Of a DNA stretch of 64,000 bases, positions 14,484 to 52,486 are shown piece by piece. The stretch is from the NCBI GenBank assembly GCA_002495905.1, contig DAHJ01000022.1, forward strand, positions 1,008-65,007, read 5' to 3'. The translations under genes were made by a program, and so were the position numbers. The stretch comes from Thaumarchaeota archaeon UBA223. GTDB lineage: Archaea; Thermoproteota; Nitrososphaeria; Nitrososphaerales; UBA57. The notes beneath the pieces were generated by a model. The model was not told the DNA's origin. It saw nothing but the letters and a program-made list of their open reading frames with translations, and did not search any database. How positions within the stretch are numbered: position 1 is the first letter of the stretch; every line of letters starts with the position of its first letter.

Positions 14484-15584
14484 TTATAACTTTTCGGATT
14501 TTTCCCAAGGAACATTTTTATTACCAAAATGTCCATAGATGCAATTTTTTGAATATTCGGTGAAATTGAATAAATCAAATTTTCGAATGATGCCGAGAGG
14601 TGTCAAGTCTTGAGATTCAGTTATCAAATCAGCAATTGATTGATTATCTCCATTAGAATCAACATAAAGTGAAGTAGGCTCTTTAATACCTATAGCATAA
14701 CTCAATTGTATACTGCACCAATCTGCAAGTTCGCTTAAGACAACATTTTTGGCAAGCCAACGAGCCATATATGCAGCTGATCGATCTACTTTAGTTGGAT
14801 CTTTACCCGAGAATGCGCCACCGCCATGAGGAGCATATCCTCCATAAGTATCTGCAATAATTTTTCTTCCCGTAAGGCCGGAATCACCTTGAGGACCACC
14901 AATAACAAAGTTGCCAGTTGGATTAATTAGAAATTCAGTACGAGTACGATCGATTAGATTACCGCAGGATTCTAGAATAGCAGTTTCAGCAAGTTCCTTG
15001 GCAGAATTATTAGCGCCGTTAGCATGTTGAGTTGAAACTACAACTTTGGCTATGTGTTCAGGAACATTATCTCTATAAACAATACTTACTTGACTTTTAG
15101 AATCAGGGCCAAGAATATCAGGATTTTTATTTCGAAGAATTTGTAAATGTTTCAATATTTCATGTGAATAATGGATAGGGGCAGGAAGAAGAGAAGGAGT
15201 ATCTTTACATGCATAGCCAAACATTAAACCTTGATCTCCTGCACCAAAATCATCAGTTCCTAATGCAATATCAGCCGATTGGTTATGCAAACGATTATCA
15301 ATTTTCAGATTTTTCCAATGAAAGCCGTCTTGTTCATAACCTATCTCGCGAACTTTATCGCGAATAATAGATTCGACTTCATCATTATCGGGATTAAAGT
15401 TTTTAGTTTCACCGAAGACAAGTACATAATTAGTAGTATTAGCAGTTTCAATACCACAACGAGTAGTTTCATCACCTGAAGACAATGCAGCATCAACTAG
15501 TGCATCGCTAATTTGATCAGCGACTTTGTCAGGATGTCCTGAAGATACTGATTCGGAGGTAAAAGTAAAATTATTATTATTCAT
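14484..15584 (-). CDS. metK: S-adenosylmethionine synthetase, bacterial/eukaryotic type
   Basis: 366 aa. SESVSSGHPDKVADQISDA, GAGDQGLMFGYA and GGGAFSGKDPTKVDRSAAY are present. Confidence 0.95.
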   Translation of the reverse strand: MNNNNFTFTSESVSSGHPDKVADQISDALVDAALSSGDETTRCGIETANTTNYVLVFGETKNFNPDNDEVESIIRDKVREIGYEQDGFHWKNLKIDNRLHNQSADIALGTDDFGAGDQGLMFGYACKDTPSLLPAPIHYSHEILKHLQILRNKNPDILGPDSKSQVSIVYRDNVPEHIAKVVVSTQHANGANNSAKELAETAILESCGNLIDRTRTEFLINPTGNFVIGGPQGDSGLTGRKIIADTYGGYAPHGGGAFSGKDPTKVDRSAAYMARWLAKNVVLSELADWCSIQLSYAIGIKEPTSLYVDSNGDNQSIADLITESQDLTPLGIIRKFDLFNFTEYSKNCIYGHFGNKNVPWEKSEKL

Positions 15585-26124: not shown

Positions 26125-26928
26125 TTAACTTTCAATTGGGAGATCTTCTCTAGTACTCCAATCGGCAAATGATCTGTCATAAATTTTAACATTATCATAT
26201 CCGCATATTTGTAATGCTACAAAAGTATGAGAAGCTCTTTCTCCAACTTGGCAATAACAAATTATTTCTTTATCTTTAGTAATTCCAGACTCTTCAAAGA
26301 GACTATTCATCTGTTCTAGATCTTTGAAAATATAACCTTCGTTACCTACTGCAATTTCCCAAGGAAAGTTTTTGGAGTTTGGAATCCTACCCGATTTAGG
26401 TCCTGCTGCAATGATTCCATTAAATTCTTCAGGACTGCGAGTATCAACCAATACAGAATTAGAATCATTGATTTTAGATAGTACATATTCATGATCAACT
26501 TTGAAATCAAGTTGAGATTGATTAATAATAAAATTAGAATTTTCAATTATTTCAACTTTATCAGTAACAGGATATCCTAATGACATCCATTTAGAGAAAC
26601 TAATATCAAGAAATTGAACAGTGAGGCCATAATACGCAAGAGACCAGAATAAGCGGGCTGCAGTAGCACCTCCTCGATCACCGCATATTATAAGCGTAGA
26701 TTCGTTTTTTATACCAAGAATACTAAGTAATTCTTCTATTTGTTCCTTAGAAGCCAAGTCAAAATATGATGTAGAATCGGTAAAACTCAAGATTTTATCA
26801 TAAGGAACGAGTCTAGAATTAGGAATATGAGCAGAATTGTATTCACGAGGGGAACGAATATCAAGTACTACAAAATTAGGATCATTAAGATTTTCTTTTA
26901 ACCATAGAGAATCCAATAAAATAGACAT
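26125..26928 (-). CDS. two-domain rhodanese sulfurtransferase
   Basis: 267 aa. Domain 1 has the loop IICGDRGGATAAR and domain 2 has the catalytic loop CYCQVGERASH. There is a conserved Trp near the C-terminus (FADWS). Confidence 0.88.
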   Translation of the reverse strand: MSILLDSLWLKENLNDPNFVVLDIRSPREYNSAHIPNSRLVPYDKILSFTDSTSYFDLASKEQIEELLSILGIKNESTLIICGDRGGATAARLFWSLAYYGLTVQFLDISFSKWMSLGYPVTDKVEIIENSNFIINQSQLDFKVDHEYVLSKINDSNSVLVDTRSPEEFNGIIAAGPKSGRIPNSKNFPWEIAVGNEGYIFKDLEQMNSLFEESGITKDKEIICYCQVGERASHTFVALQICGYDNVKIYDRSFADWSTREDLPIES

Positions 26929-26930
26929 AA

Positions 26931-27173
26931 TTATTTTTTCCTCAAAATAAATTTAAAGTAATTATCTTCTTCATTAATCTCAATAATTTCATGGCCTACA
27001 CGATTAGCCCATGCAGGGATATCTTCTTTAGATGCAGGATCAGTAGCTGAAATTTCAAGAACTTGTCCACTTTCCATTTTAGAAATAAATTGCTTAGTTT
27101 TAAGAACAGGGATAGGACAAACTAAACCTTTAACATCAAGAGATTGATCGATTTTCAAAGAAAGATTCACCAA
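26931..27173 (-). CDS. TusA/SirA/YedF-like sulfur carrier
   Basis: 80 aa. LDVKGLVCPIPVLKTK carries the CPxP motif. The start at 27173 is TTG. Confidence 0.85.
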   Translation of the reverse strand: MVNLSLKIDQSLDVKGLVCPIPVLKTKQFISKMESGQVLEISATDPASKEDIPAWANRVGHEIIEINEEDNYFKFILRKK

Positions 27174-27181
27174 ATAAACGA

Positions 27182-27427
27182 TTAGTTATTGTTATTTTTT
27201 ATAGAAATTTTAAAAACTCCTTCGTCAGTTTCTTCGGAGCTAAGAACTTCATGTCCATCTTTTTTAACAGCTGAAGGAATATTTATTGTAGAAGGTAGAT
27301 GATCAACTGTGACTTCCAATATTTCTCCGTCTTCTAATTTTTTAAGTTCTTTAACAGTATTAATTACTGGCCAAGGACATACTTGTCCAATAAGATCGAG
27401 TTTCTTACTTTGTTGTTGCATAATCAT
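27182..27427 (-). CDS. TusA/SirA/YedF-like sulfur carrier
   Basis: 81 aa. LDLIGQVCPWPVINTVKE carries the CPxP motif. It overlaps the upstream SelD-like gene by 4 nt. Confidence 0.85.
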   Translation of the reverse strand: MIMQQQSKKLDLIGQVCPWPVINTVKELKKLEDGEILEVTVDHLPSTINIPSAVKKDGHEVLSSEETDEGVFKISIKNNNN

Positions 27428-28854
27428 TCATTCCCTATAGTCAATTGATTTAATAATACATCAGATGCAATCATATCATTTACGTCTTTCGAAATTTTTA
27501 CTGTGCCGTTTCCTTTCCCTAAAACAGTACCGATAACATGTGGATCATAACCTGATGATTTAAGTTCAGAGCTAATATTTGATATAATATTAGGAGAAGC
27601 AATTACTGCAACAGCTCCATTTGTACCTGCAGTAGCATTATCCATAAGAAAGTTATCAGTAGCATATTTAACAAATTCAGGATAACGTAAAGGAAGATTG
27701 TCAAGAGAGATATCAACCCCTGCATTATTTGCATGTTCTTTGAATATCATTATACCAGGACCAGATAGATCACCTGTAGCTAAAACATGTTCATTTATAT
27801 CAAAAGAACTTCCAAATTCAGGTAAATACTTGTTAATAATCTCTGCAACCTTCAAATTAGGTTGGTTCATAGTACTAATAACAGAATTTTTAGCGTTTTG
27901 AACGTCGTTAAGAGAATAACCAGTTTTTTCTAAGTCTTGAAGAAATGTTTCGTCAGCAACGCAGGACAAGAATACATTAATTGGAGCTAAATCTCCAAAA
28001 GGTCTAGTAACCAAGATTTGCATTCCAGTATCTAGAAGATCAAGTTTAGTAGGAGGTTCCTTTCGAAGAGTACCAAAAAGTGTGGCTCCAATCAATAGCT
28101 TTCCACGTTGTGGTGATTCGGAAGGAAGTAATTCAATACCATATTGATTAGCAAATGTTTTCATATTTTTAGAAATATTATTTTGAATTTCTTCATTTGG
28201 TGCATCGACAACTGGAGAAACTTTTAATTCTTCATAACAACCAAGAGAAATTAAATCATTAAGTGAATTTGATATAGCAACATTAGTCTGTTGTTCAGAA
28301 GATGGATCAGCAGTCGGATCAATAATTTGAATAGTATCATTATTAGATAGGCACCAGCCATCAGATCGTCCTTCTTCATAGGAAATAAAGTCAAATAATG
28401 CAAATTCAGCTTCTGGAAAACCGGTAATAATTGAATGTCCTTTTCCAACAGCAAAATGAACATCAGATTTAGATATTGATGTGTAAAGAGTGTCCAATAA
28501 TGCTTGGAATTTTTCTTGTTTTTCGGCATTTTTCTGAAATACTTGTAATAAAGAAATAGCACGCTTAGGATTGATTTGTTTTAAGTCATCGAGATCAATT
28601 TGTGGATCTGAAGGATTGTAAATTCTACGAGTAATAGTTGGTCCATCTCCAGTTAATGGAAATATATCAGCATCAACACGTTCGCCTAAAGATATTCCCA
28701 TTTGTTTAAGTCGAGGTTTTAGATTATGTAAACTAGGATAAACAACAGTGTCAAGATCTACTTTAACAGCACATCCTGCAACCCATCGAAGTGGATCCAT
28801 TCCCATTTCTCTATATTTGGAAACATTGTCCCAAAATTCTTGTTTTGTACTCAA
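27424..28854 (-). CDS. atypical long SelD-like (selenide/water dikinase-like) PurM-superfamily protein
   Basis: N-terminal WVAGCAVKVD resembles the SelD G-x-G-C-x-x-K loop. QQTNVAISNSLNDLISLG, GMQILVTRPFG and ATGDLSGPGIMIF...AGVD align by eye to SelD blocks. The start is uncertain: the track says 28959, which overlaps the divergent gene. I prefer the TTG at 28854; ATGs occur at 28806 and 28800. Confidence 0.65.
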   Translation of the reverse strand: MSTKQEFWDNVSKYREMGMDPLRWVAGCAVKVDLDTVVYPSLHNLKPRLKQMGISLGERVDADIFPLTGDGPTITRRIYNPSDPQIDLDDLKQINPKRAISLLQVFQKNAEKQEKFQALLDTLYTSISKSDVHFAVGKGHSIITGFPEAEFALFDFISYEEGRSDGWCLSNNDTIQIIDPTADPSSEQQTNVAISNSLNDLISLGCYEELKVSPVVDAPNEEIQNNISKNMKTFANQYGIELLPSESPQRGKLLIGATLFGTLRKEPPTKLDLLDTGMQILVTRPFGDLAPINVFLSCVADETFLQDLEKTGYSLNDVQNAKNSVISTMNQPNLKVAEIINKYLPEFGSSFDINEHVLATGDLSGPGIMIFKEHANNAGVDISLDNLPLRYPEFVKYATDNFLMDNATAGTNGAVAVIASPNIISNISSELKSSGYDPHVIGTVLGKGNGTVKISKDVNDMIASDVLLNQLTIGNE

Positions 28855-28921
28855 TGTAAAACAATTAATCGAATGTCGAAAGATATATAAATATAACGGC
28901 ATTATAAAATATCGATATAAG

Positions 28922-30136
28922 ATGTCAGATACAACAGTAAATAGAAGAGATTTCATCAAGTATATCGGGGGAGCTGCTGTAGGTTTAGGAATAGGAGGAG
29001 CAGGTTATCTTTCTGCCAATTCCCAAGTAAATACAGTAACAAGTGAACTTGAGAATGCTAATAGTGAACTCGATCAAATAAAAGAAGAACTTAAAGGAAG
29101 AGGACATTTAGGATATGTCTTTGGTGCGGAAGGATCGATTACAACACTTGATCTAGCACGTGGAAAAATCCTAGCTACATCCGGACCAACTTGGATTGCA
29201 GAAGCAGGAAGTATTGATTGGTGTAATCATTTTCCAGATGCTAATGGAAACATATGGGGACTAGTTAGAAAACCAGGTCAAGTAGGATCTACAATTGCAG
29301 TAAATCCAACTACTAATGAATTAGTTCATGATGTTCCATTAGAAGGTAGATGGAGAATAAGATTAGGAGAAACCGATGAAGAAGGAAAATATGGATACAT
29401 GTTAAATGGATATATTGCCGATAAATATGATTCAGAAAAATTCAATGCATCGAGAGATGAATTTGAAATTCCATATGAAGATATAGATCCAGGAGAAATT
29501 CATAAAATCGATCTTCTTAAGGGAGAAGTAGTCGATGTATTACCTGTTCCGAAATTCTGTTGTGATGTTGCAATAGCGCCAGATGGCAAATTATGGCTCG
29601 TAAATCAATTAGAGAGTTTGATTTCAGTAGTAGATACAAAGACATTCACAATTGAAGAACATTTAGCTACAGAATACTCTGACTATGGTGCAAGTATGAT
29701 AACAATTTCGCCTAACAATGATGTTGCATTTATCGAAGTAAATTCAGCAGGAAATTGGTCGAATGCAGGTGGATTCAAAAACTTTGATCCAATCGAGATG
29801 GTATGGGACATTAAAAATAAAGAAATGATAAAAGAATTTCCATTAGAAGCAGGTCCTCGTACTAGTGAATTTACACCAGATGGAAAATACTGTGTTGTTA
29901 GAACCAGACCAGCATCAATAGTATATGATGTTGAGAATTTGAGTGAAGTAAGAAAGATAGAAGTTGAGAACACTGGACACCCAGCTTTTAGTCCTGACAG
30001 CACTCTTGCATATATACCAAACCCTGGAAACAGTTCAATTGACGTATTTGAAGTTGGATCTTGGAAAGAGGTAGATAGTTTGAAAGTGCCTTATTCACCA
30101 TCAAAGATTGTTCCAATCAACACAAACAACTACTAA
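28922..30136 (+). CDS. Tat-signal YVTN-type beta-propeller protein
   Basis: The ATG at 28922 gives MSDTTVNRRDFIKYIGGAAVGLGIGGAG, a twin-arginine motif plus h-region. A short coiled segment follows, then repeated ...P.G...(Y/F)V.N...S.(I/V)SV(I/V)D-like blades (e.g. FSPDSTLAYIPNPGNSSIDVFEV). The track ORF start at 28748 is an upstream extension. Confidence 0.7.
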   Translation: MSDTTVNRRDFIKYIGGAAVGLGIGGAGYLSANSQVNTVTSELENANSELDQIKEELKGRGHLGYVFGAEGSITTLDLARGKILATSGPTWIAEAGSIDWCNHFPDANGNIWGLVRKPGQVGSTIAVNPTTNELVHDVPLEGRWRIRLGETDEEGKYGYMLNGYIADKYDSEKFNASRDEFEIPYEDIDPGEIHKIDLLKGEVVDVLPVPKFCCDVAIAPDGKLWLVNQLESLISVVDTKTFTIEEHLATEYSDYGASMITISPNNDVAFIEVNSAGNWSNAGGFKNFDPIEMVWDIKNKEMIKEFPLEAGPRTSEFTPDGKYCVVRTRPASIVYDVENLSEVRKIEVENTGHPAFSPDSTLAYIPNPGNSSIDVFEVGSWKEVDSLKVPYSPSKIVPINTNNY

Positions 30137-30145
30137 GTGGAATAG

Positions 30146-31216
30146 TTGTCAGAACAAGATAATCAAAGGATGCTATTAGTTAGCGCAATAATAACAGCGC
30201 TAACAATAGGTTTTTTGATTGGAGGAACTTTTGTTTATCATACAACCAAAGAAGTAGAAGTTGAACAATATCAAGCAGTAGTGTTCAACACTATTGGTAA
30301 AACAGCAACTGTAATAGACAATCATCTTCTTACTAGTTTAACAAACATCAATATTGAGATAGAAGAGGGTCAATATGGCGCACATTATAATGAAAAGAAT
30401 AACAAATTATATCTTATTCATGATGGTGAATCGGAATTGTTAACATTAGATCCACAATCACTAATAATACAATCAAGGGTTAGAGTGGGTCCAAATCTTC
30501 AACATGCAGGAATATTTGATGATAAAGGAGAGATATTTTTCTTAATCAGTAGAGATTCGAATTCATTGGTAATGATCAATACAACGACAGACAGGATAAT
30601 ATCAAGAATTGAAGTGCAAGAACAACCGCATCATGTAGCGTTGTTAGAAGATTCTGTTGCAGTTACAAATACAGAATCACAATCAATATCCATTGTAGAT
30701 CTCAAAGAATTAGAAGTAGTCAATAACATAAAGATTGATGCAGAACCTTTAATGATAGTATCAGATAATAATGAAAGAATTTTTGTTGGTGCAATAAGAC
30801 CTGCAAAGCTATTTTTCATAGATAATTATGAAGTAAAAAATAGTATTAATTTAGAATCAGATCCACACGGAATGGCATTAACTGGAGATGGAGAAAACAT
30901 CATTGTGACATTACCTGAAGAAAACAAGGTTTTGATTATAAGTATGAAGGGAGAGGTAATTAAGGAGCTGAAAACAGGGGATTTTCCTCATAATATCGAT
31001 ATTGAACCTAACGGAAACTATGGATATATCAGCAATAGTAATGATGCCACTGTATCTGTAATTGATTTGATTAAGTTCGAGATTGTTGCAACAATAGAAA
31101 CAGGAAATGGTTCTCATAATGTGCAATTTTACAACATAATGAACAGTAATACAGAATTAAACGTCGCAAAAGATGATTCAAAAATTGTTAGTGCGAATTT
31201 TAATTGTGGAGGTTAG
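30146..31216 (+). CDS. N-terminally membrane-anchored YVTN-type beta-propeller protein
   Basis: 356 aa. TM LLVSAIITALTIGFLIGGTFVY is followed by repeated blades (NSLVMINTTTDRII, SQSISIVDLKELEVV, NKVLIISMKGEVI, NDATVSVIDLIKFEIV). The start is TTG, with an alternative ATG at 30170. Confidence 0.7.
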   Translation: MSEQDNQRMLLVSAIITALTIGFLIGGTFVYHTTKEVEVEQYQAVVFNTIGKTATVIDNHLLTSLTNINIEIEEGQYGAHYNEKNNKLYLIHDGESELLTLDPQSLIIQSRVRVGPNLQHAGIFDDKGEIFFLISRDSNSLVMINTTTDRIISRIEVQEQPHHVALLEDSVAVTNTESQSISIVDLKELEVVNNIKIDAEPLMIVSDNNERIFVGAIRPAKLFFIDNYEVKNSINLESDPHGMALTGDGENIIVTLPEENKVLIISMKGEVIKELKTGDFPHNIDIEPNGNYGYISNSNDATVSVIDLIKFEIVATIETGNGSHNVQFYNIMNSNTELNVAKDDSKIVSANFNCGG

Positions 31217-31219
31217 ATA

Positions 31220-32317
31220 ATGTTAGAATATAATAATATTTTCTCACTTAGTGCAACTTTGCTTATTGGATTAGGATTTGGAATACTTTTACAGAAAGGA
31301 CGTTTCTGTTTTACTAGTGCATTAAGAGATTTTATTGCATTCAAAGATACAAGAGTACTAAATGGAGTAATTATTGGAATTGTAACAATGATGTTGGGTA
31401 CAAGTATAGCATATGTATTAGGGATTTCTAGCTCTAATTTTTGGGTTTCAAATTATGGTCTTTCGAACATAATTGGAGGATTCGTATTTGGAATTGGAAT
31501 GGTCTATGGAGGTGGATGTGCATCAGGTACATTATATCGTGCAGGAGAAGGATACATACATTACTGGTTGGTATTAATTTCAGCTTGTGTAGGATACATA
31601 GCTTTTGCTGCACTATTTCCAGAAATCTTTCTACCATATTTCTTCGTTCCATTACAAATTTTTGATGGTTACAGTGTCATTTCGAGTTTAGAATTATTCT
31701 CGCCGATTGTTCCAGTGTTATTAATTTTCGCATCAGTATTATATTTACGAAATAGAAATAAATTAATTATAAATCAAACAATTCAAAGTCTAAAATTATC
31801 AAATATTTCATCCAATAGTCTCAAGGCAGAATGGGATACAAAATTAGTGGGTGTTGGAATGGGAGTATTAGCAACATTGTGGTTTGTAATCTGGGGAACA
31901 TTAAGTGTGACAGGACCGCAAGCAAGATGGACAGGGTTAGTTTATAGCGAGTTATTTGGAATAGAAACTCTTCAGAACAATATTTACTGGAACAGTGTTG
32001 TATTTCGAGATGGAATATTTTCAATTAGTTTAGACATGATATTATTTATGAGTCTAATTTTTGGAGCATTTATTTCTGCATATTTGAGTGGAGATTTTAA
32101 AATAAGAACGATAAAAACGTCAAGAATTCCGAATGCAGTGATTGGTGGGCTAATAATGGGGTTTGGATCAAGAATGGCTCCAGGATGTAACATCAGTAAC
32201 ACGTTTAGTGGATTGGCATTTTTATCAGTAGCAGGTTTTATAACATCATTAGGTCTATTATTAGGAGTATATGTTGCAACACATTGGATGTTTAGAAAAT
32301 CCGGTTGTGCCATTTAG
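31220..32317 (+). CDS. yeeE: YeeE/YedE-family sulfur-compound (thiosulfate-type) permease
   Basis: 365 aa and polytopic. All three Cys-containing family motifs are present: KGRFCFTSALRDF, GGGCASGTLYRAGEG and PGCNISNTFSG. Confidence 0.88.
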   Translation: MLEYNNIFSLSATLLIGLGFGILLQKGRFCFTSALRDFIAFKDTRVLNGVIIGIVTMMLGTSIAYVLGISSSNFWVSNYGLSNIIGGFVFGIGMVYGGGCASGTLYRAGEGYIHYWLVLISACVGYIAFAALFPEIFLPYFFVPLQIFDGYSVISSLELFSPIVPVLLIFASVLYLRNRNKLIINQTIQSLKLSNISSNSLKAEWDTKLVGVGMGVLATLWFVIWGTLSVTGPQARWTGLVYSELFGIETLQNNIYWNSVVFRDGIFSISLDMILFMSLIFGAFISAYLSGDFKIRTIKTSRIPNAVIGGLIMGFGSRMAPGCNISNTFSGLAFLSVAGFITSLGLLLGVYVATHWMFRKSGCAI

Positions 32318-32322
32318 ATTAG

Positions 32323-32601
32323 GTGAACATGATGGAAGAAAGAACAGTTAATGACGAAGATTTGAAAGAAATTGAACAGAATGCAGTAATGATCGATATG
32401 GAGGGAGAAGTATGTCCTTATCCACAGATTATTGCACGAGAAGAAATAAAAAAGATTGAATCTGGGAAAATTGTAGTGATAAAAACGGATCACGTAATGG
32501 CAACAAAAGCTGTTCCTCAATCAGTGAGTAATGATGTTTCATATTTTGGGATATGGAAATCAGGTTCAGGTCAGTATAAAATAATACTATGGAAGAAATA
32601 A
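32323..32601 (+). CDS. TusA/YedF-like sulfur carrier (YeeE partner)
   Basis: 92 aa. IDMEGEVCPYPQIIAREE carries the CPxP motif. It begins 6 nt after yeeE. The track start is GTG, with an ATG 2 codons downstream. Confidence 0.8.
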   Translation: MNMMEERTVNDEDLKEIEQNAVMIDMEGEVCPYPQIIAREEIKKIESGKIVVIKTDHVMATKAVPQSVSNDVSYFGIWKSGSGQYKIILWKK

Positions 32602-45891: not shown

Positions 45892-46974
45892 CTAGTTTTT
45901 GAGGACGTTTCCTCTAACGATTACGACTACTTGTAGTATTACTGCAATTGCTGCAAGAACTGCTGCAATTAGAGCTGTAGATGAAGCTTGTGCAGAACCT
46001 TCGGCTGCTGCATCTGCATTCTCAACTATGCCTCCAATAGCATCTTCGATGTCGTCTTCAGTTTCTTCGACTCCATCTTCAATTGCTGCTTGACTGCCTG
46101 AGATTGCTGATGTTACATCGGCAACTGCTGCATCTAATGCACTACTAATCTGTCCAATGGTTACACCCTCAGGTGTTTCCTTGTCTGCAATTTCGTGGAC
46201 TTCACCGTCGATGTGCTCTAGCTCATCGGCGACGTCGCCAACATCACTTGCAAGATTAGCAATTGCGCTGAGTATAGGTGCATTACTTTCTGCTTCAGGG
46301 ATGTCTATTTGGACACCTGATGAAACTTGGAATGAACCCAAGGCCCATACGCCTCCAGCTTGAACGGCAACTCCGTAAGAGCCGACATTACCTGCTGTAA
46401 TTGTACATTGTTGCAAACCATTGATGGTGGTACTTGAGCATGTGTTTGTAATTGTTTCTGAACCGCCAGGTCCTGAGACTTTGGCGACAGTAATTGCTGA
46501 GTCTTGTGCTACTCCACCGGTTGTGGTCAATACGAAGATTGTTACTGTATCTCCAGGATTATATGTTCCATCGGCTGATACAGCGACTGAGACTCCTCCG
46601 CTCTCACTAGCTGCAGGTGCGGCTGCAGATTCTTCTGTAAATGTTACAGTCAAGTCTGCTGTTCCTTCATCTGCGGTTGCAGTTACAGTATAACTTCCAA
46701 ATGGGAATGTACTGGTGGCTTTGCTTGGGAATCTCAATAATGTTACTGAGTAATCACCGTTTGAGTCAGCAGCAGTTTGACCTACTGCAACTTGTGCACC
46801 ATTAGGGTTTGAAACCTTGAATGTAATATCCGCATTTGGTCCAGCTGTACCACTAACGGTTAACTGATCTCCAGGAGTGTATTCCTCGTCACCAGTTAAA
46901 GTGAGTGCTAAAGCAAATGGAATTGCTGCAACGAGCATCAACGCTGACAATACTACTGCTAGTCCTACGTTCAT
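45892..46974 (-). CDS. secreted, C-terminally membrane-anchored acidic envelope protein (candidate S-layer stalk/anchor)
   Basis: The ATG at 46974 gives the signal peptide MNVGLAVVLSALMLVAAIPFALA. This is followed by Thr/Gly/Val-rich beta-type domains, an Ala/Asp/Glu-rich segment of about 115 aa, a TM helix ALIAAVLAAIAVILQVVVIV and the tail RGNVLKN. The track start (TTG at 47010) lies inside a hairpin. Confidence 0.75.
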   Translation of the reverse strand: MNVGLAVVLSALMLVAAIPFALALTLTGDEEYTPGDQLTVSGTAGPNADITFKVSNPNGAQVAVGQTAADSNGDYSVTLLRFPSKATSTFPFGSYTVTATADEGTADLTVTFTEESAAAPAASESGGVSVAVSADGTYNPGDTVTIFVLTTTGGVAQDSAITVAKVSGPGGSETITNTCSSTTINGLQQCTITAGNVGSYGVAVQAGGVWALGSFQVSSGVQIDIPEAESNAPILSAIANLASDVGDVADELEHIDGEVHEIADKETPEGVTIGQISSALDAAVADVTSAISGSQAAIEDGVEETEDDIEDAIGGIVENADAAAEGSAQASSTALIAAVLAAIAVILQVVVIVRGNVLKN

Positions 46975-47026
46975 TTTTCCAGACTGGAAAAATAAGAGGG
47001 GGGAGGTCAACTTATGTTGTCCTCTC

Positions 47027-50000
47027 CTATGCGATTGTGAAGGTTACGCTCTTCACTGGTGATAGAGCTTCTGCTTCACTTATGCTTGTCCATACGTAGA
47101 CTTCTGCTGTGTATGTTCCTGCAGAGTCAGGTAGCCAGGATAGACCTGGTGTCTGAGATTCATCTACTGCGAGTTCGATGTCTCTTACCCATCCGAGGTT
47201 GACAACTTCACCAGCTGAATTCTTGATTTGTACCAAGAATGTTACTGTGTGAGCAACGTCATCATCGTTTGTGACACTAGCCTGTACGATTACGATGTCT
47301 CCAACACTTGGAGCAGCGAATGCGTCACCTGCTGTATCGACGATCTCAGGAGTACCTGCTGGAACTTGTTCAGTCTTCGATAGTGCTTGACCAATCTTCG
47401 TTGTTACTTCAATGGTACACTTCTTGTTAGTGTCACAAAGTGTATCTGTGTACTTGATGGTGACAACATCACCAACAGTTGCGGATACTTGTGAACTTGA
47501 AGGTACACCCTTTGAGGTAGCAATGAATTCAATCTTGCCTGTGAAGGTTGAACTATCAGCTGCAGATTCTTGTAGTGTTATACTAGTTCCGATTTCCCAA
47601 CTATCTGTAATTACTTTAACAGTAATTGATTGTTTGGAATCTGGACTTGTATTAGCGTCAAGATCTACGACAGTAATTTCTGCGAAGTCACCGACTAGAT
47701 AGTTTGCCTTGTCAGTTGTTATTGCACCAGATTCTGTCTTGACATTCAATGATGCTTTAACGACTTGTAAGGTTCCACTTACATCAGCTGTATCTGAATA
47801 ATAGAAGTATATTGTATCAGATGCATTGACATGAAGTGTTCCATCTTCGTTAGTTGGTGTTCCAGTTGATCTGGCCATTGTGATACCGAACCAGTATGTA
47901 CCTGTAGAGGTTGTTCCATTGGAGGCGTATGGTTTTTCAATATCGCCTGTACCGTTGGAGGTCACCTGTGTCAATTGTACACTGCTAGCTGCAGTTGTCA
48001 TTAAGTCAGGATCAACAAGTTTCACATAGATCTTACCATCAGGACCAACATCTGTACTTGGTGTAACAGTTAGTTCAGCTGTTGTACTTTGTACAGTGAT
48101 TGCTGCTGTAGCAGATGCACGTGCTAATCCTGAGCCTGAATAGAAGCTGTTGGATGTAGCATTGTCTCTGACACGTAGTCTGATGTATTGGTTAGCCGCC
48201 AATGTTGTACCAAATGGTGACTTTCCTGGTTCTAATGTGATTGTCTTTGTGAACTCGCCTGTATTAACGCCAGTTTCTGTAAGTGCAATTGTAGAATTGT
48301 ACTTAGCAGTATCTGTTTCTGCCGGTGCAGTTTGCTTTGCTGTACCAATCAATAGTATGTATAGCTTGTCTGCAACTTCTACATCTCTGTTGAAGTCAGG
48401 TTCAGTAGCTGTTACAGTGAATGTATCACCTAATTTACCTGTACTGATAGAGGATGAGATTGTTGCATCATGTCCTTTAATATCAAGACATTTTGCTACA
48501 CCTTTTACCGCAGTGTTAGTAGTTGTTGAACTATCAACATTACGGGCTATTGTGATATTAGTACTTGAAGCACCATCTGCCCATTCGAAACAAATCTGTC
48601 CGCCAACCATATCTTGCATCTTATCGAGAGATTCTTGTTCTCGTGTAGGTGAAGAATAGTTAAGAACTGTTGGGATATCACTGTTTGAATCACCCCAGTT
48701 AATACCGAACTTCAATGTGAATACACCAGTATTTACACCAGTTTCGGTGGCTGTAACATTATACCATGACAAGTGACCAAGGGCTCCTTGTACAGGGTTA
48801 ATTGCGTTACCTCCAGATGTGGTTCCGACTTGACCGCCAGTTGCGTTCTTGATAATCATACGTAATGTTGCATTATCACGAGCGTTGACGTTAGTGTTCT
48901 TATCAGCGTCAGTTAGAGTTACTGTTGCGTTAACACGGGACACGTTAGTTCCAGATGTAGCATGGGATGGTGAAATTGGGAAGTCAGTACGATCAAAGCT
49001 TAATGCTCCTACTGTTCCGCCAATTGTAACTGTTACATTAGCAGTTGTACCATCAAATCTGTCTTTGACAGTGAATACCAAACTATCTCCGGCTGCAAGT
49101 CCTAGTGGTCCTGATCCGCCTCTTAAGTCTAATGCAGTTCGTAATGAACTAATTGAGACTGAGGTTGTCCAGACACCAGTGTTTACACCAGTTTCTAATA
49201 CTAAGGCTGAGTGGTTTCGTATATCATGATAACCGTTTGTTCCGTTGATAGATGTAATTGTGAAGTTAGCTAACCTCTTTGCATTACATGTACTTCCAAC
49301 GAAAATACCAGAACATGTTCTGTCACCTGCGGTAGTACCTTCACGAGATGAATAGTGTTTCTGTCTCGTAGAGTTGAATAATATCTGCTCTTTTGATGCA
49401 GAATTATCGTTACCATCAGGATCAGTGTATGTTAACTTGATACTTGAAGCGGTTTCGTCATACGATGCTTTGTCAGTGGCTACTGTTGCTGCGGTTGTAG
49501 TAAAGTCAACTGTTGCTGCTGCAGTGGTTCCTCCATACTTGTCTTGATATGTAATATCAAATACAGAGTTCTTTGCATTAGCTGGACTGACTGTACATGT
49601 CAACCTGTTGGCAGTAGTACTATATGAACAACCAGATGTGTAAGCACCAATTGTATTACGAATTGTGAACTTGAAGACACTTGTGTTTGTACCGGTTTCA
49701 GTTGCTGTGACAGTAACTGGTGAACTGTTATTGAGTTCGACGAATACTTTGTTTATTGTATCTTTCTTTTCTGGATCGTGGTTCATGTCAGCATCAGTAA
49801 TTTCTACTGTAACATCAGAAGATGATGTAACAGCTGTTGCTGATGTTGTCATAGTACCAACAGTTTCTTGAATAGTAAGAGTCAATGACGTTGCATTGTA
49901 ACATGAAGATCGAGGACCGTCAACTCCACATTGTGTTGAATTATAACCGAATCGGATATTCTGAATCGGTGTAAATGCCAACTTGAATGTGTCGCCATTC

Positions 50001-51214
50001 TTCCAACCTGAACTTCCTGTATTATCGGAAGTGTAGTTCCAGGTAGGACGTGAGTCCCAATCACCTTGTGCTTTACCTGCAGTTCTCAAAGTCTTGTTTG
50101 TGTTAACGTTAGTATCGCCTGCATTTGTGTTATTGAAGTAGAATCTTTCCATTTCAAGACATGGTGAGGTAGCTACAGTGTTTGCACACTTGAATATACC
50201 AGTGTTTACACCAGTTTCAGTAAAGTTCAATCTGAACTCTGCTGCACCAGTTCCACCAGTGATTCTGTTACCTGAGCCATAATAGCTCATTGTCTTGTTG
50301 ACGATATTCTGTAATGTAGCGTTTGACGATGTTACGATCGTTGCTTGGAATCCGTTAGTGTTATTTGTAACTAAGAAACTTTCTTTTTCTGTTGGATCTT
50401 GATTAAGATCGTTATGGTTTAGGTACAATCTTAGTGATGCACCAGGGGTTACCGTTGTCTGTTTAGACTCGGTATTATATAATGTGGCTTTTGTCTCTTT
50501 GTAGAGCAATGTCTGTGAAACATCTTTCGCTGCACCAGTTGAATCAGATGCATCTTTGTACGTGATTGTCATTGTATGACCTCGGGTCATGTTCATACCA
50601 TGGATCATTGGTGATGAAGCTATACTGTGTGTTGCAGATAACTTGGATTGTGATCCACCACGGTATGTGTGGTTTGAGTATGTACGTGTCGATGGAACAC
50701 CATTTGCTAAGTGGCCTGTGTTGATGTAGTTCTTTGCACATGAGCCGACTGCGAGTCCGTTAGAACCCTGTCCTGCTGGTGCGTGACCTGCATGAAATAC
50801 TGCGTGAGAAGCATTGTGTGCTTTATCACTTGCAGTTACGTTCAATTGGGTACTACATCCATAGACTACATAAAGTGCATCAGTTGCATAAGCAACCCAT
50901 GAACCTCCCGTATTCTGTGTGACGTTGAGTGTGTATGTATTTGTTGCATTAGTCCATTGAAGGACGACGCTTGGATTGTATGTGTCTTTCATTTCTTGAA
51001 CACCGATATCACTATCAGTGATTGTCATAGAAACGGTTTGGTTTCCAAAGATTTGCGAAGATGATAGTGTAAGAGTTCCAGTTGCTGCAGCTTGTGCTGA
51101 TGGAGCTATTGGTAAGCCCATCATCATAAGCATACTAGCAGCTAGTAACAAGGTTGCAGTTGCAGCCTTGAATTGCTTAGAGAATAGCCAATTTGTATTT
51201 AGACTATAGTTCAT
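47027..51214 (-). CDS. large secreted repeat-domain glycoprotein, candidate major S-layer protein
   Basis: 1395 aa. The signal peptide ends ...PSAQA. The protein is rich in Thr/Ser/Asn/Gly/Ala/Val and carries about 37 N-x-S/T sequons by my count. An ETG(V/T)NTG-x-(F/W) motif recurs every 150-200 aa, consistent with tandem Ig-like domains. There is no C-terminal TM. Confidence 0.75.
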   Translation of the reverse strand: MNYSLNTNWLFSKQFKAATATLLLAASMLMMMGLPIAPSAQAAATGTLTLSSSQIFGNQTVSMTITDSDIGVQEMKDTYNPSVVLQWTNATNTYTLNVTQNTGGSWVAYATDALYVVYGCSTQLNVTASDKAHNASHAVFHAGHAPAGQGSNGLAVGSCAKNYINTGHLANGVPSTRTYSNHTYRGGSQSKLSATHSIASSPMIHGMNMTRGHTMTITYKDASDSTGAAKDVSQTLLYKETKATLYNTESKQTTVTPGASLRLYLNHNDLNQDPTEKESFLVTNNTNGFQATIVTSSNATLQNIVNKTMSYYGSGNRITGGTGAAEFRLNFTETGVNTGIFKCANTVATSPCLEMERFYFNNTNAGDTNVNTNKTLRTAGKAQGDWDSRPTWNYTSDNTGSSGWKNGDTFKLAFTPIQNIRFGYNSTQCGVDGPRSSCYNATSLTLTIQETVGTMTTSATAVTSSSDVTVEITDADMNHDPEKKDTINKVFVELNNSSPVTVTATETGTNTSVFKFTIRNTIGAYTSGCSYSTTANRLTCTVSPANAKNSVFDITYQDKYGGTTAAATVDFTTTAATVATDKASYDETASSIKLTYTDPDGNDNSASKEQILFNSTRQKHYSSREGTTAGDRTCSGIFVGSTCNAKRLANFTITSINGTNGYHDIRNHSALVLETGVNTGVWTTSVSISSLRTALDLRGGSGPLGLAAGDSLVFTVKDRFDGTTANVTVTIGGTVGALSFDRTDFPISPSHATSGTNVSRVNATVTLTDADKNTNVNARDNATLRMIIKNATGGQVGTTSGGNAINPVQGALGHLSWYNVTATETGVNTGVFTLKFGINWGDSNSDIPTVLNYSSPTREQESLDKMQDMVGGQICFEWADGASSTNITIARNVDSSTTTNTAVKGVAKCLDIKGHDATISSSISTGKLGDTFTVTATEPDFNRDVEVADKLYILLIGTAKQTAPAETDTAKYNSTIALTETGVNTGEFTKTITLEPGKSPFGTTLAANQYIRLRVRDNATSNSFYSGSGLARASATAAITVQSTTAELTVTPSTDVGPDGKIYVKLVDPDLMTTAASSVQLTQVTSNGTGDIEKPYASNGTTSTGTYWFGITMARSTGTPTNEDGTLHVNASDTIYFYYSDTADVSGTLQVVKASLNVKTESGAITTDKANYLVGDFAEITVVDLDANTSPDSKQSITVKVITDSWEIGTSITLQESAADSSTFTGKIEFIATSKGVPSSSQVSATVGDVVTIKYTDTLCDTNKKCTIEVTTKIGQALSKTEQVPAGTPEIVDTAGDAFAAPSVGDIVIVQASVTNDDDVAHTVTFLVQIKNSAGEVVNLGWVRDIELAVDESQTPGLSWLPDSAGTYTAEVYVWTSISEAEALSPVKSVTFTIA
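48257..50218 (-). repeat. dispersed intragenic ~21-nt repeats encoding the ETG(V/T)NTG motif
   Basis: On the plus strand, accagtgtttacaccagtttc occurs identically at 50198..50218 and 49175..49195. A copy with 1 mismatch lies at 48725..48745. Diverged copies lie at 49679..49699 and 48257..48277. Confidence 0.8.
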
Positions 51215-51403: not shown

Positions 51404-52486
51404 CTAGAAGAACCAAGCAAATAAAAGAGAAAGGCCAAAGATAAGATAGAGAAAACCGAACAAAGGAAGTAATTTGTTGTTTAAAGTTAATCCAGGAATT
51501 TTATATAAATAAGGAATCATTGATGCGAATCGAAAATATCCAGAGAAGAAAGAATATGCAGGCTGTAAAACAGATCCAAAAACAATTAATGATAAACTAA
51601 AGTAATCAAGATGTTTTTTCTTGTAAATAAAATAGATAGATAAAATTAAAGCAAAGAAAATTGACCAAGTTAGGAACTCGTTGATTAAATAATTTAGACC
51701 TGTAATCGCAGGAGTATTAACTCCTCCAAAGAAACGATTTTGAAAGAATGTTTGAAATGGAATTCCAATCATACTATGTGGAAATCCGGAATCTACACCT
51801 GAAGTAAAACGTAAGAAATGTTCTAAACCAAATCTGTAAATTAGATGCAATCCGTGAATTGAAATTGTAATAAAAGGAATTATAAAATATTTAAGAAATT
51901 TACGATCTTTTGTGAGTAAAAAGTATGGAAATGAGAAAATTACAAAATCTGGACGAGCTAATGAAGCGAATGCAAGAAAAATTGCAGAAATCTTAAAATT
52001 ATCAGTTCGAAAATAATACAACGCACCAAACATGAATGTGAAAAATAATGGTTCATTCATGCCTCCATGTGTAGAGATGAGAAGAATAGGATTGAATGCA
52101 TAAAATAAAACAGATGATTTAATGTTATCTAAAGAAACAACACGAGAGAACATTACCACGCTAAAAGAAAATGCAGTAATATTGATTAGTTCCATTGTCA
52201 AGGCAGTAGCAAAAGGATTTCCTTGTGCAATAAGATATGTAATTAAAGGATAAAGAAATGTTGCATGACGAAAGCCACTTTCTTCAGGAGAAGATGAAAA
52301 AGGATCAAGTGCTATATTATAATAAGAAGTTCCGTCAGTATCTGCTTTATCAGCAAAATGATGAACATCATAACCTAAAGCTAACCCAAAAATAAAGAAA
52401 AAGAGATTGAAACTAAAGATTAAGAGAAATAATTTTCGTTCATCCTTTAGTTGTTCAGATAAGTAATCAATTATTTGTATAGCCAC
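51404..52486 (-). CDS. polytopic membrane protein, GT-C-type (PIG-V/DUF2029-like) glycosyltransferase candidate
   Basis: 360 aa with about 9-10 TM segments. The first extracytoplasmic loop carries the acidic motif HHFADKADTDGTSYYNIALDPF, which resembles the D..(H/Y)Y..IA loop of mannosyltransferase-like GT-C families. The start is GTG. Confidence 0.45.
   Translation of the reverse strand: MAIQIIDYLSEQLKDERKLFLLIFSFNLFFFIFGLALGYDVHHFADKADTDGTSYYNIALDPFSSSPEESGFRHATFLYPLITYLIAQGNPFATALTMELINITAFSFSVVMFSRVVSLDNIKSSVLFYAFNPILLISTHGGMNEPLFFTFMFGALYYFRTDNFKISAIFLAFASLARPDFVIFSFPYFLLTKDRKFLKYFIIPFITISIHGLHLIYRFGLEHFLRFTSGVDSGFPHSMIGIPFQTFFQNRFFGGVNTPAITGLNYLINEFLTWSIFFALILSIYFIYKKKHLDYFSLSLIVFGSVLQPAYSFFSGYFRFASMIPYLYKIPGLTLNNKLLPLFGFLYLIFGLSLLFAWFF

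Follow-up and report, generated by a model that had tools for sequence, protein, structure and literature searches.

Eight genes in two divergent arms lie between positions 26125 and 32601 of the window, by which we mean the whole 64-kb stretch of DNA that was analysed. The eight open reading frames, their motifs and the 67-bp spacer that separates the arms are all present at the coordinates given in the original prediction, and family profiles together with the ORF coordinates bear out both the gene identities and the divergent two-arm architecture. The features are as follows.

26125..26928, minus strand: tandem-domain rhodanese sulfurtransferase, 267 aa (PF00581, 114.6 bits in two stretches)
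26931..27173, minus strand: TusA2, TusA-family sulfur carrier, 80 aa, CPIP motif (PF01206, 90.1 bits)
27182..27427, minus strand: TusA1, TusA-family sulfur carrier, 81 aa, CPWP motif (PF01206, 75.4 bits)
27424..28854, minus strand: SelD-related putative sulfur metabolism protein (SelD-like), 476 aa, TTG start (NF038049, 548.4 bits)
28855..28921, no strand: divergent intergenic spacer, 67 bp, putative bidirectional archaeal promoter region
28922..30136, plus strand: prop1, Tat-signal seven-bladed YVTN-type beta-propeller, 404 aa (TIGR01409; AF2/Foldseek)
30146..31216, plus strand: prop2, membrane-anchored YVTN/YncE-type beta-propeller, 356 aa (TIGR02276, PF21783, PF02239)
31220..32317, plus strand: YeeE/TsuA-type sulfur-compound permease, 365 aa, three relay cysteines (PF04143, 185.2 bits)
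32323..32601, plus strand: TusA3, TusA-family carrier, 92 aa, CPYP motif, 5 nt downstream of YeeE (PF01206, 39.9 bits)

The genes are tightly packed: that for TusA1 overlaps the end of the SelD-like gene, at the stop codon, by 4 nt, and other neighbours within an arm are 2-9 nt apart. Within the spacer, a 28-nt block, TATATAAATATAACGGCATTATAAAATA (28884-28911), contains two TATA-like elements. This block is unchanged in six related genomes and carries one mismatch in a seventh (L007), while the surrounding spacer bases diverge (L001-L007). Judged from its sequence, the spacer is a putative bidirectional archaeal promoter, from which both arms may be co-regulated.

Host and conservation of the locus

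The contigs closest to the window belong to MAGs of heterotrophic marine Thaumarchaeota (HMT), e.g. ASW8 and ATL, and the ammonia-oxidiser-like background first assumed for this DNA was wrong. The host is a deep-sea heterotrophic archaeon. HMT genomes are about 1 Mb in size; sulfite reductase is reported to be missing from this lineage, and Cys and Met to be scarce in it (PMC7300363, PMC13374868). That HMT lack sulfate assimilation is the statement of one paper. Neither a tRNA-Sec nor any further selenium or sulfur gene was found in the 64-kb window.

Synteny of the eight genes in related genomes, named beforehand as a point to check, holds: the layout recurs collinearly in L001-L007 (69-89% nucleotide identity), L081 and L082-L084, with SelD-like identity down to 60%. 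Five of these contigs end before all eight genes show, and L009, which completes the set of 12 related contigs, begins within the SelD-like gene and displays the left arm and flank only. Such collinear recurrence excludes a chance arrangement.

The SelD-like protein

The SelD-like protein, a rare relative of the selenium-activating enzyme SelD, belongs clearly to NF038049 (548.4 bits against an NCBIfam cut-off of 250) and is a predicted ATP-utilising enzyme of the PurM superfamily. Its score against the HypE equivalog is 21.5 (cut-off 251.6). The start codon is TTG at 28854, where relatives have ATG. Throughout the alignment of the family the loop Gly27-Cys28-x-x-Lys31 is invariant, as are N196, D200 and D362, which HMMER aligned to N87, D91 and D227 of E. 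coli SelD. The AF2 model has a pLDDT of 92, with low confidence at residues 21-30, which include the Cys28 motif (mean pLDDT 60). Foldseek placed the SelD/SEPHS1 selenophosphate synthetases nearest to this model (E = 1e-15 to 1e-16), followed by HypE (2e-13), ThiL (4e-12) and PurM (2e-10). Placement inside the ThiL, HypE or PurM groups had been set beforehand as the outcome that would count against the original prediction; the protein instead stands in a family of its own, closest in fold to the selenophosphate synthetases.

The original prediction also held that the gene combination could not be mapped to a described pathway. This was overstated in view of the NF038049 membership, and because Li et al. 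(2014, PMC4210487) had described the SelD-like family, noted SirA/TusA-like and rhodanese genes beside its members and put forward thiophosphate as a hypothesis; they reported the family in Sulfolobales and Thermoproteales only. It now also appears in MAGs labelled Thaumarchaeota, Desulfurococcales, Pyrodictiaceae, Acidilobaceae, Halobacteria, Hydrothermarchaeales and Methanomethylicia.

Carriers, rhodanese and permease

TusA1 is the paralogue that most resembles the TusA encoded beside SelD-like genes in other archaea (best phmmer match, Thermoproteota loci). The TusA2 gene was found in all close relatives, and that for TusA3 is kept beside YeeE in L001-L003, L006, L007, L081, L082 and L084. 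The position of TusA3 is that of a YeeD/TsuB-like partner.

The tandem rhodanese scores 96.8 against the 3-MST equivalog (cut-off 250). A cysteine in both active-site loops had been noted earlier, which is correct for the present sequence; the first, however, is a recent substitution. The N-domain Cys ('IICGDRGG') is confined to the present sequence and its five nearest relatives (L001-L005), with Tyr in its place in L006-L011, whereas the C-domain Cys (loop C-Q-V-G-E-R-A) is conserved in all tandem homologues. Since its Cys varies, the N-terminal domain is probably inactive, apparently in the ordinary way, and the C-domain loop alone has the look of an active site.

The permease matches the Sulf_transp family over its full length and contains eight to nine hydrophobic segments. 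It retains all three of the Cys motifs originally recognised: GRFCFTS, GGGCASG and PGCNISN align with the three cysteines of Spirochaeta thermophila YeeE, a characterised thiosulfate permease (StYeeE, PDB 6leo; E = 5e-27). The statement that YeeE plus TusA is an established thiosulfate-uptake pair is likewise sound. Since the permease scores well under the cut-offs of the curated TsuA equivalogs (131.7 against 400 and 114.8 against 645), a thiosulfate-type substrate is only putative.

Recurrent linkage and the question of selenium

Linkage was counted at 80 species-level archaeal SelD-like loci, and association of the SelD-like gene with genes for TusA, YeeE, rhodanese and acylphosphatase is recurrent. 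A TusA gene lies within 400 bp in 64 of the 80; YeeE is found within 3 kb at 28, 21 of them within 500 bp, usually in the order yeeE-tusA-selD-like; and a rhodanese is found within 3 kb at 23. An acylphosphatase gene, the commonest partner after TusA, adjoins or is fused to the SelD-like gene at 46/80 loci. None is present at our locus or in the 64-kb window, and some of the chemistry that normally goes with the enzyme may thus be absent here or encoded elsewhere. In two groundwater Thaumarchaeota, a NIR_SIR sulfite-reductase-like gene directly follows selD-like-tusA, which ties the module to assimilatory sulfur chemistry.

It could be argued that the permease, a TusA-like carrier and the SelD-like enzyme form an archaeal counterpart of bacterial YedE/YedF/SelD, importing and activating selenium for an unrecognised use. 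That system (Zhang et al. 2008; Lin et al. 2015, PMC5322559) likewise clusters a membrane protein of the YeeE/YedE superfamily with a TusA-like carrier and an ATP enzyme of the SelD superfamily, and the arrangement at our locus parallels the clustering of YedE, SirA-like and SelD genes (PMC5322559). The top NCBIfam match of the permease is the YedE/FdhT model (168 bits), that of TusA1 and TusA3 is YedF, the catalytic residues of SelD are kept, and Li et al. (PMC4210487) left a selenium role possible. However, every selenium-family score lies under its cut-off (168 against 350; 43.7 against 200 for the permease and TIGR04112; 56.8 against 79), and so does the score for the SelD equivalog, at 34.5 (cut-off 291). 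The two-domain TusA+DsrE arrangement that marks YedF is missing from all three TusA proteins, and in archaea YedE usually comes as two genes (PMC5322559), whereas the permease here is encoded by one. The YedE/YedF link to selenium drawn in the original prediction is thus weak. Moreover, the SelD-like family is present in archaea without any known selenium trait (PMC4210487), no tRNA-Sec or further gene of selenium metabolism was found in the window, and the neighbours of SelD-like genes elsewhere are sulfur enzymes (DsrE, SQR/FCSD-like, sulfite-reductase-like, rhodanese). We therefore regard a selenium function as very unlikely.

The two propellers

Prop1 carries a Tat signal (TIGR01409, 19.0; cut-off 16.7) and, in PKFCCDVA, a vicinal cysteine pair of which Cys213 is conserved (Ser in one homologue) and Cys214 invariant. 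Its AF2 model (pLDDT 74.5) matches 1l0q best in Foldseek (4e-17). Only 22 clusters of homologues were found, all at least 59% identical. Prop2 scores 41 against the YVTN repeat TIGR02276 (cut-off 27.85) and above the cut-offs of PF21783 and PF02239. It has a single N-terminal hydrophobic segment (residues 7-32), a His at the 'P-x-G' position of most blades and an invariant NFNCG towards the C-terminus; in a profile comparison with the PDB, 1l0q again ranks first (6e-51). Because a 100%-identical database protein has 348 aa, translation of prop2 may start at the ATG at 30170.

Homologues of both propellers are confined to the HMT clade, and no YeeE, TusA or SelD-like gene was found at 77 distant YVTN loci; the proposal that the propellers are parts of a sulfur locus thus finds no counterpart outside this clade. 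These observations fit a reading in which the left arm is the ancestral module of the Thaumarchaeota, an unrelated surface function falls to the right arm or to its propellers at least, and inherited gene order accounts in part for what looks like an eight-gene system. Consistent with this, the groundwater Thaumarchaeota L008, L010 and L011 carry left-arm genes without YeeE or propellers, the best structural matches of the propellers are generic S-layer, YncE and lactonase propellers, and the right arm adjoins a large region of cell-surface glycan genes. Nevertheless, YeeE is independently linked to SelD-like and TusA genes in 22 distant Thermoproteota species, which indicates that at least the YeeE-TusA3 pair belongs with the left arm; and the propellers lie between the shared promoter block and YeeE with gaps of 3-9 nt, an arrangement kept even at 60% SelD-like identity. 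Two separate units are unlikely in our judgement.

Proposed route and related systems

The locus probably represents the HMT's route for uptake and activation of reduced sulfur, built around the SelD-related enzyme. More specifically, we propose, with a probability of about 0.55, that YeeE and TusA import thiosulfate-type sulfur, that persulfides on the rhodanese and TusA proteins relay it, and that the SelD-like enzyme activates it with ATP, perhaps as thiophosphate. The steps would be: passage of thiosulfate, or a similar sulfane-bearing anion, through the membrane via the YeeE-type permease; capture of the imported sulfur by the CPxP cysteine of TusA3, as by YeeD with bacterial YeeE; transfer of sulfane sulfur as cysteine persulfides by the tandem rhodanese (through its C-domain Cys) and TusA1/TusA2; delivery to the flexible Cys28-x-x-Lys31 loop of the SelD-like enzyme by TusA1, whose translation is coupled to that of the SelD-like gene; and ATP-dependent formation of activated sulfur for biosynthesis, the analogy with selenophosphate suggesting thiophosphate, or a phospho-sulfur intermediate bound to the enzyme, as the most likely product. 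The two exported propellers are a clade-specific addition to the importer arm and would bind or process the extracellular substrate. No electron donor for the two-electron step from persulfide to thiophosphate is evident in the locus.

The thiophosphate product is a hypothesis carried over from the crenarchaeal SelD-like proteins (Li et al. 2014, BMC Genomics 15:908, PMC4210487; NF038049), which belong to the same family, share the Cys-x-x-Lys loop and the SelD-type Asn and Asp, and also have SirA/TusA-like and rhodanese neighbours. Their hosts, however, are hyperthermophilic and sulfur-reducing, whereas the present one is a mesophilic, aerobic, pelagic thaumarchaeon with a genome of about 1 Mb. 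In contrast to the crenarchaeal loci, ours has no fused or adjacent acylphosphatase and no DsrE or 'Prx-like' gene; it has three TusA paralogues, and it stands head-to-head with an operon in which two exported propellers accompany a YeeE importer.

HypE, a PurM-superfamily enzyme, acts on a protein-bound cysteine adduct, and its partner HypF carries an acylphosphatase domain. The SelD-like protein shares this fold superfamily, its likely substrate is also a Cys-bearing carrier, and in most other lineages it too is paired with an acylphosphatase. Its conserved Cys, however, is N-terminal, as in SelD, and not C-terminal as in HypE, and the present locus has no acylphosphatase or hydrogenase genes.

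Several small Cys carriers encoded together with a rhodanese, implying a persulfide or thiosulfonate relay, are also a feature of the TusA/DsrE/rhodanese cascades of sulfur oxidisers (Liu et al. 2014; Tanabe et al. 2024, PMC11094781). It is conceivable that reduced sulfur is imported and processed here as a supplementary electron donor or for detoxification, the SelD-like protein being an accessory. SoxT/YeeE-like importers and TusA/rhodanese (DsrE) cascades serve cytoplasmic sulfur oxidation (PMC11582611, PMC11094781); sulfur strongly induces yeeE in Sulfolobaceae (PMC11323534); and DsrE, HdrB-like CCG and SQR/FCSD-like genes lie near some SelD-like loci (L012, L044, L071). Yet the window and the HMT loci contain no sHdr, Sox, Dsr or SQR gene, and our locus has no DsrE, sHdr/LbpA or other oxidising end-point, its predicted end-point being an ATP-dependent PurM-superfamily enzyme. 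As ATP consumption fits biosynthetic activation better than energy conservation, and HMT are portrayed as obligate organoheterotrophs with no energy metabolism based on sulfur, a dissimilatory or protective role appears quite unlikely.

The biosynthetic route proposed above resembles, at its importing end, the YeeE(TsuA)-YeeD(TsuB) system (Tanaka et al. 2020; Ikei et al. 2024, PMC11073785), with a full-length Sulf_transp protein, three relay cysteines and a single-Cys CPxP TusA-family gene directly downstream of the permease. It differs from that system in the low TsuA scores of the permease, the two co-operonic exported propellers and the coupling of the pair to SelD-like, TusA and rhodanese genes. 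YeeD-type TusA proteins are required partners of YeeE, and the acceptor downstream of them is explicitly an open question (PMC11073785). The SelD-like/TusA/rhodanese set is a candidate for this acceptor and, if the proposed route is true, it would provide a sulfur supply for a lineage reported to be without sulfite reductase.

Organization and conservation of the divergent locus

An ORF listing recovered all eight genes of the divergent locus at the coordinates originally claimed, and the claimed gene families were borne out by Pfam and NCBIfam profile searches.

Genes of the divergent locus (window coordinates, strand, product)
26125-26928, minus strand, rhodanese
26931-27173, minus strand, TusA2 (carrier with a CPIP motif)
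27182-27427, minus strand, TusA1 (carrier with a CPWP motif)
27424-28854, minus strand, SelD-like protein
28922-30136, plus strand, prop1 (first beta-propeller)
30146-31216, plus strand, prop2 (second beta-propeller)
31220-32317, plus strand, YeeE permease
32323-32601, plus strand, TusA3 (carrier with a CPYP motif)

Gene spacing inside each arm is operon-like, with the SelD-like and TusA1 genes overlapping by 4 nt and the other gaps measuring 2-9 nt. Synteny had been named as a test of the original prediction, and the eight-gene divergent layout does recur in related contigs. It is complete in L001-L003, L006 and L007, and L004 and L005 are consistent with it, contig ends interrupting both. 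A metagenome contig whose SelD-like protein is 60% identical (L081) keeps the eight-gene layout and the same flanking genes. Three further metagenome contigs agree with this layout, L082 carrying all eight genes and L083 and L084 one part each, as limited by the contig ends. L081 also encodes an additional 239-aa protein (L081:7228-7947, minus strand) between prop1 and the SelD-like gene, with a Tat signal nearly identical to that of prop1 and no family match.

The spacer between the two arms includes a 28-nt block (28884-28911) that carries two TATA-like elements and is virtually unchanged among the relatives, while the adjacent bases vary; this block probably represents a shared divergent promoter region. 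The start codon of the SelD-like gene (28852-28854) is TTG here and ATG in 7/7 close relatives. The lineage of the window is unusual in three ways: YeeE and the rhodanese occur together, there are three TusA paralogues, and an acylphosphatase is missing. The observation underlying the original prediction is thus confirmed, whereas its interpretation is only partly supported, as the host assignment, the YedE/YedF link and the second rhodanese site did not stand.

The host lineage

An ammonia-oxidizer background had been proposed for the locus, but the nearest contigs belong to metagenome-assembled genomes (MAGs) of heterotrophic marine Thaumarchaeota (HMT). These contigs come from marine Nitrososphaerales/Thaumarchaeota MAGs, including ASW8_bin1 and isolate ATL, with SelD-like proteins 79-97% identical to that of the window, and they are collinear with it for 11-17 kb, where nucleotide identity is 69-89%. 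ASW8 and HMT_ATL are heterotrophic marine Thaumarchaeota with ~1-Mb genomes that do not oxidize ammonia (Aylward and Santoro, PMC7300363); L004, labelled "isolate ATL", is taken to be HMT_ATL from its name. The HMT group occurs worldwide in the dark ocean; a 2026 study reported that it is devoid of sulfite reductase and depleted in Cys and Met (PMC13374868). The main text of three HMT genome papers makes no mention of thiosulfate, TusA, YeeE or rhodanese, and neither expression nor literature evidence for the locus was found in the HMT papers; the supplement of one lists a TusA gene as "sira family, function unknown".

The SelD-like protein is a separate branch close to SelD

A Pfam profile search returned no match for the SelD-like protein. 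In NCBIfam it belongs to NF038049, "SelD-related putative sulfur metabolism protein", scoring 548.4 bits over residues 6-472 of 476, where the cut-off is 250. A true SelD or SenC-type selenophosphate synthetase was ruled out, since the SelD equivalog PRK14105 scores 34.5 bits and its cut-off is 291; in a profile search of PDB sequences the match to E. coli SelD had E = 0.14. Membership of the ThiL, HypE or PurM clades, which had been singled out for testing, was ruled out as well, since equivalog scores were tiny (HypE, 21.5 against 251.6) and the Foldseek ranking agreed in placing SelD first.

The AlphaFold model of the protein (pLDDT 92) has the PurM-superfamily two-domain fold and is nearest to SelD in Foldseek. 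SelD/SEPHS1 chains take up the first 13 places (E = 9e-16 to 1e-13; TM-score normalized to the target, 0.59-0.72), followed by HypE (2e-13), ThiL (4e-12) and PurM (2e-10). Taken together, the family scores and the Foldseek order therefore show that the SelD-like protein is a separate, SelD-proximal branch of the PurM superfamily, being neither ThiL, HypE or PurM nor a true SelD.

In an alignment of 33 diverse members, Gly27-Cys28-x-x-Lys31-x-Asp33, GKGHSI, NNDT, Asn196, Asp200, Asp362 and TGTNG are invariant. HMMER alignments place N196, D200 and D362 opposite the catalytic N87, D91 and D227 of E. coli SelD, and Cys28 is probably the counterpart of SelD Cys17, judging by its position and by Fig. 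2 of Li et al. (PMC4210487). The Cys28 motif falls in a low-confidence stretch of the AlphaFold model (residues 21-30, mean pLDDT 60).

The family is rare: a search of 1.84 billion representative proteins with its profile gave 191 matches at E <= 0.001, and 94 at the stricter limit of E <= 1e-30. This library also holds a tail of full-length SelD-related proteins (P0194-P0265, 430-517 aa) that score 90-220 bits with NF038049, against the cut-off of 250, and could be a sister group that has diverged further.

The family was defined computationally in Sulfolobales and Thermoproteales by Li et al. in 2014, who described SirA/TusA-like, DsrE-type and rhodanese neighbors and hypothesized that the protein makes a thiophosphate compound (PMC4210487). 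One 2022 review and one 2026 review (in the latter, "speculated") still treat its function as speculative, and our literature search found no experimental paper on the family.

Gene neighborhoods of the family across archaea

We surveyed the neighborhoods of 80 loci, one per species. TusA lies within 400 bp of the SelD-like gene in 64/80 loci, and YeeE within 3 kb in 28/80, in 21 of these within 500 bp. A rhodanese is found within 3 kb in 23/80 loci and DsrE nearby in 8/80. An acylphosphatase accompanies the SelD-like gene in 46/80 loci, directly downstream in 37 and fused in 9; minor neighbor sets comprise ThiF, SQR/FCSD-like flavoprotein and PLP-enzyme genes. From these counts it follows that SelD-like plus TusA is the core of the system, with YeeE and rhodanese as recurrent accessories. 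When YeeE is near, the genes are mostly arranged as yeeE-tusA-selD-like; contigs with this order carry the labels Pyrodictiaceae, Desulfurococcales, Acidilobaceae, Thermofilaceae, Ignisphaera, Geothermarchaeota and Methanomethylicia. Neither the YeeE link nor the free-standing acylphosphatase nor the broader taxonomic range appears in Li et al. 2014 (PMC4210487), where only the acylphosphatase fusion is described.

The free-standing acylphosphatase often overlaps the preceding SelD-like gene by 4 nt (37 species among L012-L080). It is missing from this position in all HMT loci and in Sulfolobaceae, and a profile built from 32 neighbors detected none in the 64-kb window. The window has the immediate TusA neighbor expected of NF038049 (TusA1), but not the fused or adjacent acylphosphatase that is frequent, though not universal, in this family. 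The link to acylphosphatases prompted us to consider HypE/HypF-like chemistry on TusA, with carbamoyl or thiocyanate; the data do not support it, and the acylphosphatase is absent from the locus. No DsrE, ThiF or HIT genes were found in the window, and its lone PALP-family match is a probable threonine synthase adjoining a GHMP-family kinase gene.

The selD-like-tusA pair of two groundwater Thaumarchaeota has a NIR_SIR (sulfite/nitrite-reductase-like) gene directly behind it in the same orientation (L010:9900-11834 and L008:9719-10408, both plus strand), which connects the family with the assimilatory chemistry of sulfite. A 406-kb contig labelled Acidobacteriota bacterium (L012, CBDCMH010000005.1) carries a SelD-like gene with 56% identity, together with genes for TusA, rhodanese, acylphosphatase, DsrE, an HdrB-like CCG protein and an SQR/FCSD-like flavoprotein. 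This would be the family's first member from bacteria, unless the contig is archaeal and was misbinned.

Permease, TusA carriers and rhodanese

YeeE is a full-length Sulf_transp protein (PF04143, 185.2 bits, positions 1-310 of 310) with eight to nine hydrophobic segments. It does keep the three Cys motifs originally reported, and these align with the relay cysteines of the crystallized YeeE from Spirochaeta thermophila (6leo, E = 5e-27). TsuA equivalog cut-offs are not reached (NF052577, 131.7 against 400; NF041049, 114.8 against 645). All three TusA proteins have a CPxP motif and exceed the PF01206 cut-off of 28.6 bits (TusA1, 75.4; TusA2, 90.1; TusA3, 39.9), and TusA3 starts 5 nt past the YeeE stop codon, which is the position of a YeeD/TsuB-type partner.

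The rhodanese has two PF00581 stretches, as expected of a tandem-domain protein. The loop of its C-domain, YC(Q/H)VGER(A/S), is conserved in thaumarchaeal homologues, and the Cys of this loop is present in all tandem homologues. A Cys had been pointed out in both active-site loops, but the one in the N-domain is shared only by the window and L001-L005; L006-L011 have Tyr there, and further homologues have other residues. Two active sites were rejected on this ground. As the N-domain Cys is confined to the window and its five closest relatives, the protein looks like an ordinary tandem enzyme with one active site.

A selenium role is very improbable

SelD-like plus TusA, joined by YeeE in more than a third of the species, mirrors the YedE/YedF/SelD arrangement of selenium utilization, and the locus might accordingly be thought to handle selenium. 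Against this, the models for SelD, YedE and YedF all score below cut-off. For the permease, the YedE models gave 43.7 against 200 (TIGR04112) and 168.4 against 350 (NF033796), and for the three TusA proteins the YedF model TIGR03527 gave 36.3, 39.3 and 16.6 against 110. YedF is defined by the fusion of a TusA to a DsrE domain, and in archaea YedE is normally encoded by two separate genes (PMC5322559); here all three TusA proteins are single-domain (80-92 aa), and the fusion signature is missing. The YedE/YedF assignment was rejected on cut-offs and domain architecture, which leaves the selenium link first suggested weak.

The original statement that nothing else in the window serves selenium was upheld by tRNA-Sec, Rfam and Pfam searches alike. 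The 64-kb window has no tRNA-Sec, its only Rfam match is tRNA-Arg, and no selenium trait (SelA/SelB/tRNA-Sec, SelU, YqeB/YqeC) was seen in it; by Pfam, the rest of its genes have housekeeping roles or concern cell-surface glycans. On the family scores and on what the 64-kb window encodes, we consider a selenium role very improbable.

The beta-propellers

Both prop1 and prop2 are seven-bladed YVTN-type propellers. Profile searches with Pfam and NCBIfam detected the Tat signal of prop1, and prop2 has one N-terminal hydrophobic segment and a YVTN repeat (TIGR02276, 41 against 27.85). They most resemble 1l0q, an S-layer propeller of Methanosarcina (prop2, profile 6e-51; prop1, phmmer 4e-10 and Foldseek 4e-17, model pLDDT 74.5), together with hydrazine synthase beta, YncE, NirF and lactonases.

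Only generic YVTN, YncE and lactonase matches came from Pfam, NCBIfam, PDB sequence profiles and Foldseek, and identities as known sulfur, copper or PQQ enzymes, namely tetrathionate hydrolase, thiocyanate dehydrogenase (TcDH), NosZ or selenium-binding protein/methanethiol oxidase, were unsupported. The copper-centre model for L-NosZ (NF052460), whose cut-off is 700 bits, gave 43.6 bits, and 81.7 for the orthologue in L081; of 159 PDB profile matches, the best 60 include neither NosZ nor TcDH.

In prop1, a vicinal Cys pair (PKFCCDVA) has an invariant Cys214, Cys213 being Ser in one homologue. In prop2, most blades carry a His at the "P-x-G" position (GAH, LQH, PHH, PHG, PHN, G(S/P)HN), unlike 1l0q, in which the residues at this position are variable, and the C-terminal NFNCG is invariant. 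The Cys-Cys of prop1 or the His feature of prop2 could mark a metal or redox site.

Homologues of the propellers are confined to the clade (22 clusters for prop1, and 12 plus two remote ones for prop2). Scanning metagenome contigs with the prop2 profile yielded three close relatives that share the locus and 77 distant YVTN loci with no YeeE, TusA, rhodanese or SelD-like gene, and revealed no independent propeller-sulfur linkage. Therefore, the link of the propellers to sulfur is one of position only, namely their fixed place between the shared promoter block and YeeE. The same clade-confined homologues and sulfur-free distant loci would suit propellers, or a right arm as a whole, that function independently of the rest; given the fixed position, we judge this unlikely.

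Other features of the window

The window's only G+C-rich stretch (0.41-0.45, against ~0.31 elsewhere) holds a 1395-aa ORF (47027-51214, minus strand) neighbored by ORFs at 45892-47010 and 51404-52486 (both minus strand); none of the three has a Pfam match. As it adjoins glycan-synthesis genes, the 1395-aa ORF may encode a surface or S-layer protein, or be foreign DNA. An S-adenosylmethionine synthetase gene (14484-15584, minus strand) has the three MetK domains (S-AdoMet_synt_N, _M and _C). Archaea usually rely on a different, archaeal-type enzyme, and this MetK-type gene may therefore have been transferred.

A proposed sulfur import, relay and activation system

With gene identities, conserved residues, fold and linkage established, we infer substrate, direction, product and role as follows. 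The YeeE-type importer and the YeeD-like TusA3 would take up thiosulfate-type sulfur, which the rhodanese, TusA1 and TusA2 would pass on in a persulfide relay; TusA1 would deliver it to the Cys-x-x-Lys loop of the SelD-like protein, and the latter would activate it at the expense of ATP, thiophosphate being the candidate product by analogy with selenophosphate. This would provide a route to biosynthetic sulfur for a lineage reported to be devoid of sulfite reductase. We regard this reading of the whole locus as the best supported and give it a probability of about 0.55. Dissimilatory or protective processing of sulfane sulfur by the same genes appears improbable to us.

The authors of the YeeE-YeeD study stated that the sulfur acceptor downstream of YeeD is unknown (PMC11073785), and because of the yeeE-tusA-selD-like operons the SelD-like protein is a concrete candidate for it. 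The import-relay-activation reading can be carried further: the SelD-like protein would be a thiophosphate/phospho-persulfide synthetase and YeeD's acceptor, YeeE-TusA-SelD-like would be an unrecognized ATP-dependent route to an activated donor, and in the marine clade the exported propellers would produce the substrate or capture it extracellularly. We hold this extended proposal to be doubtful.

The locus is a variant of a known, uncharacterized system, and not categorically new. Even so, it extends the SelD-like family beyond hyperthermophilic sulfur reducers to a mesophilic ocean archaeon, and exposes a recurrent YeeE-TusA-SelD-like(-acylphosphatase) module whose biochemistry is directly testable. 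It also offers a hypothesis for the sulfur supply of the genome-streamlined HMT. If the proposal is true, the SelD-like protein would be the sulfur counterpart of selenophosphate synthetase, and many archaea, including an abundant dark-ocean lineage devoid of sulfite reductase, would activate imported thiosulfate-type sulfur, the activated donor feeding cysteine, Fe-S or thio-cofactor synthesis.
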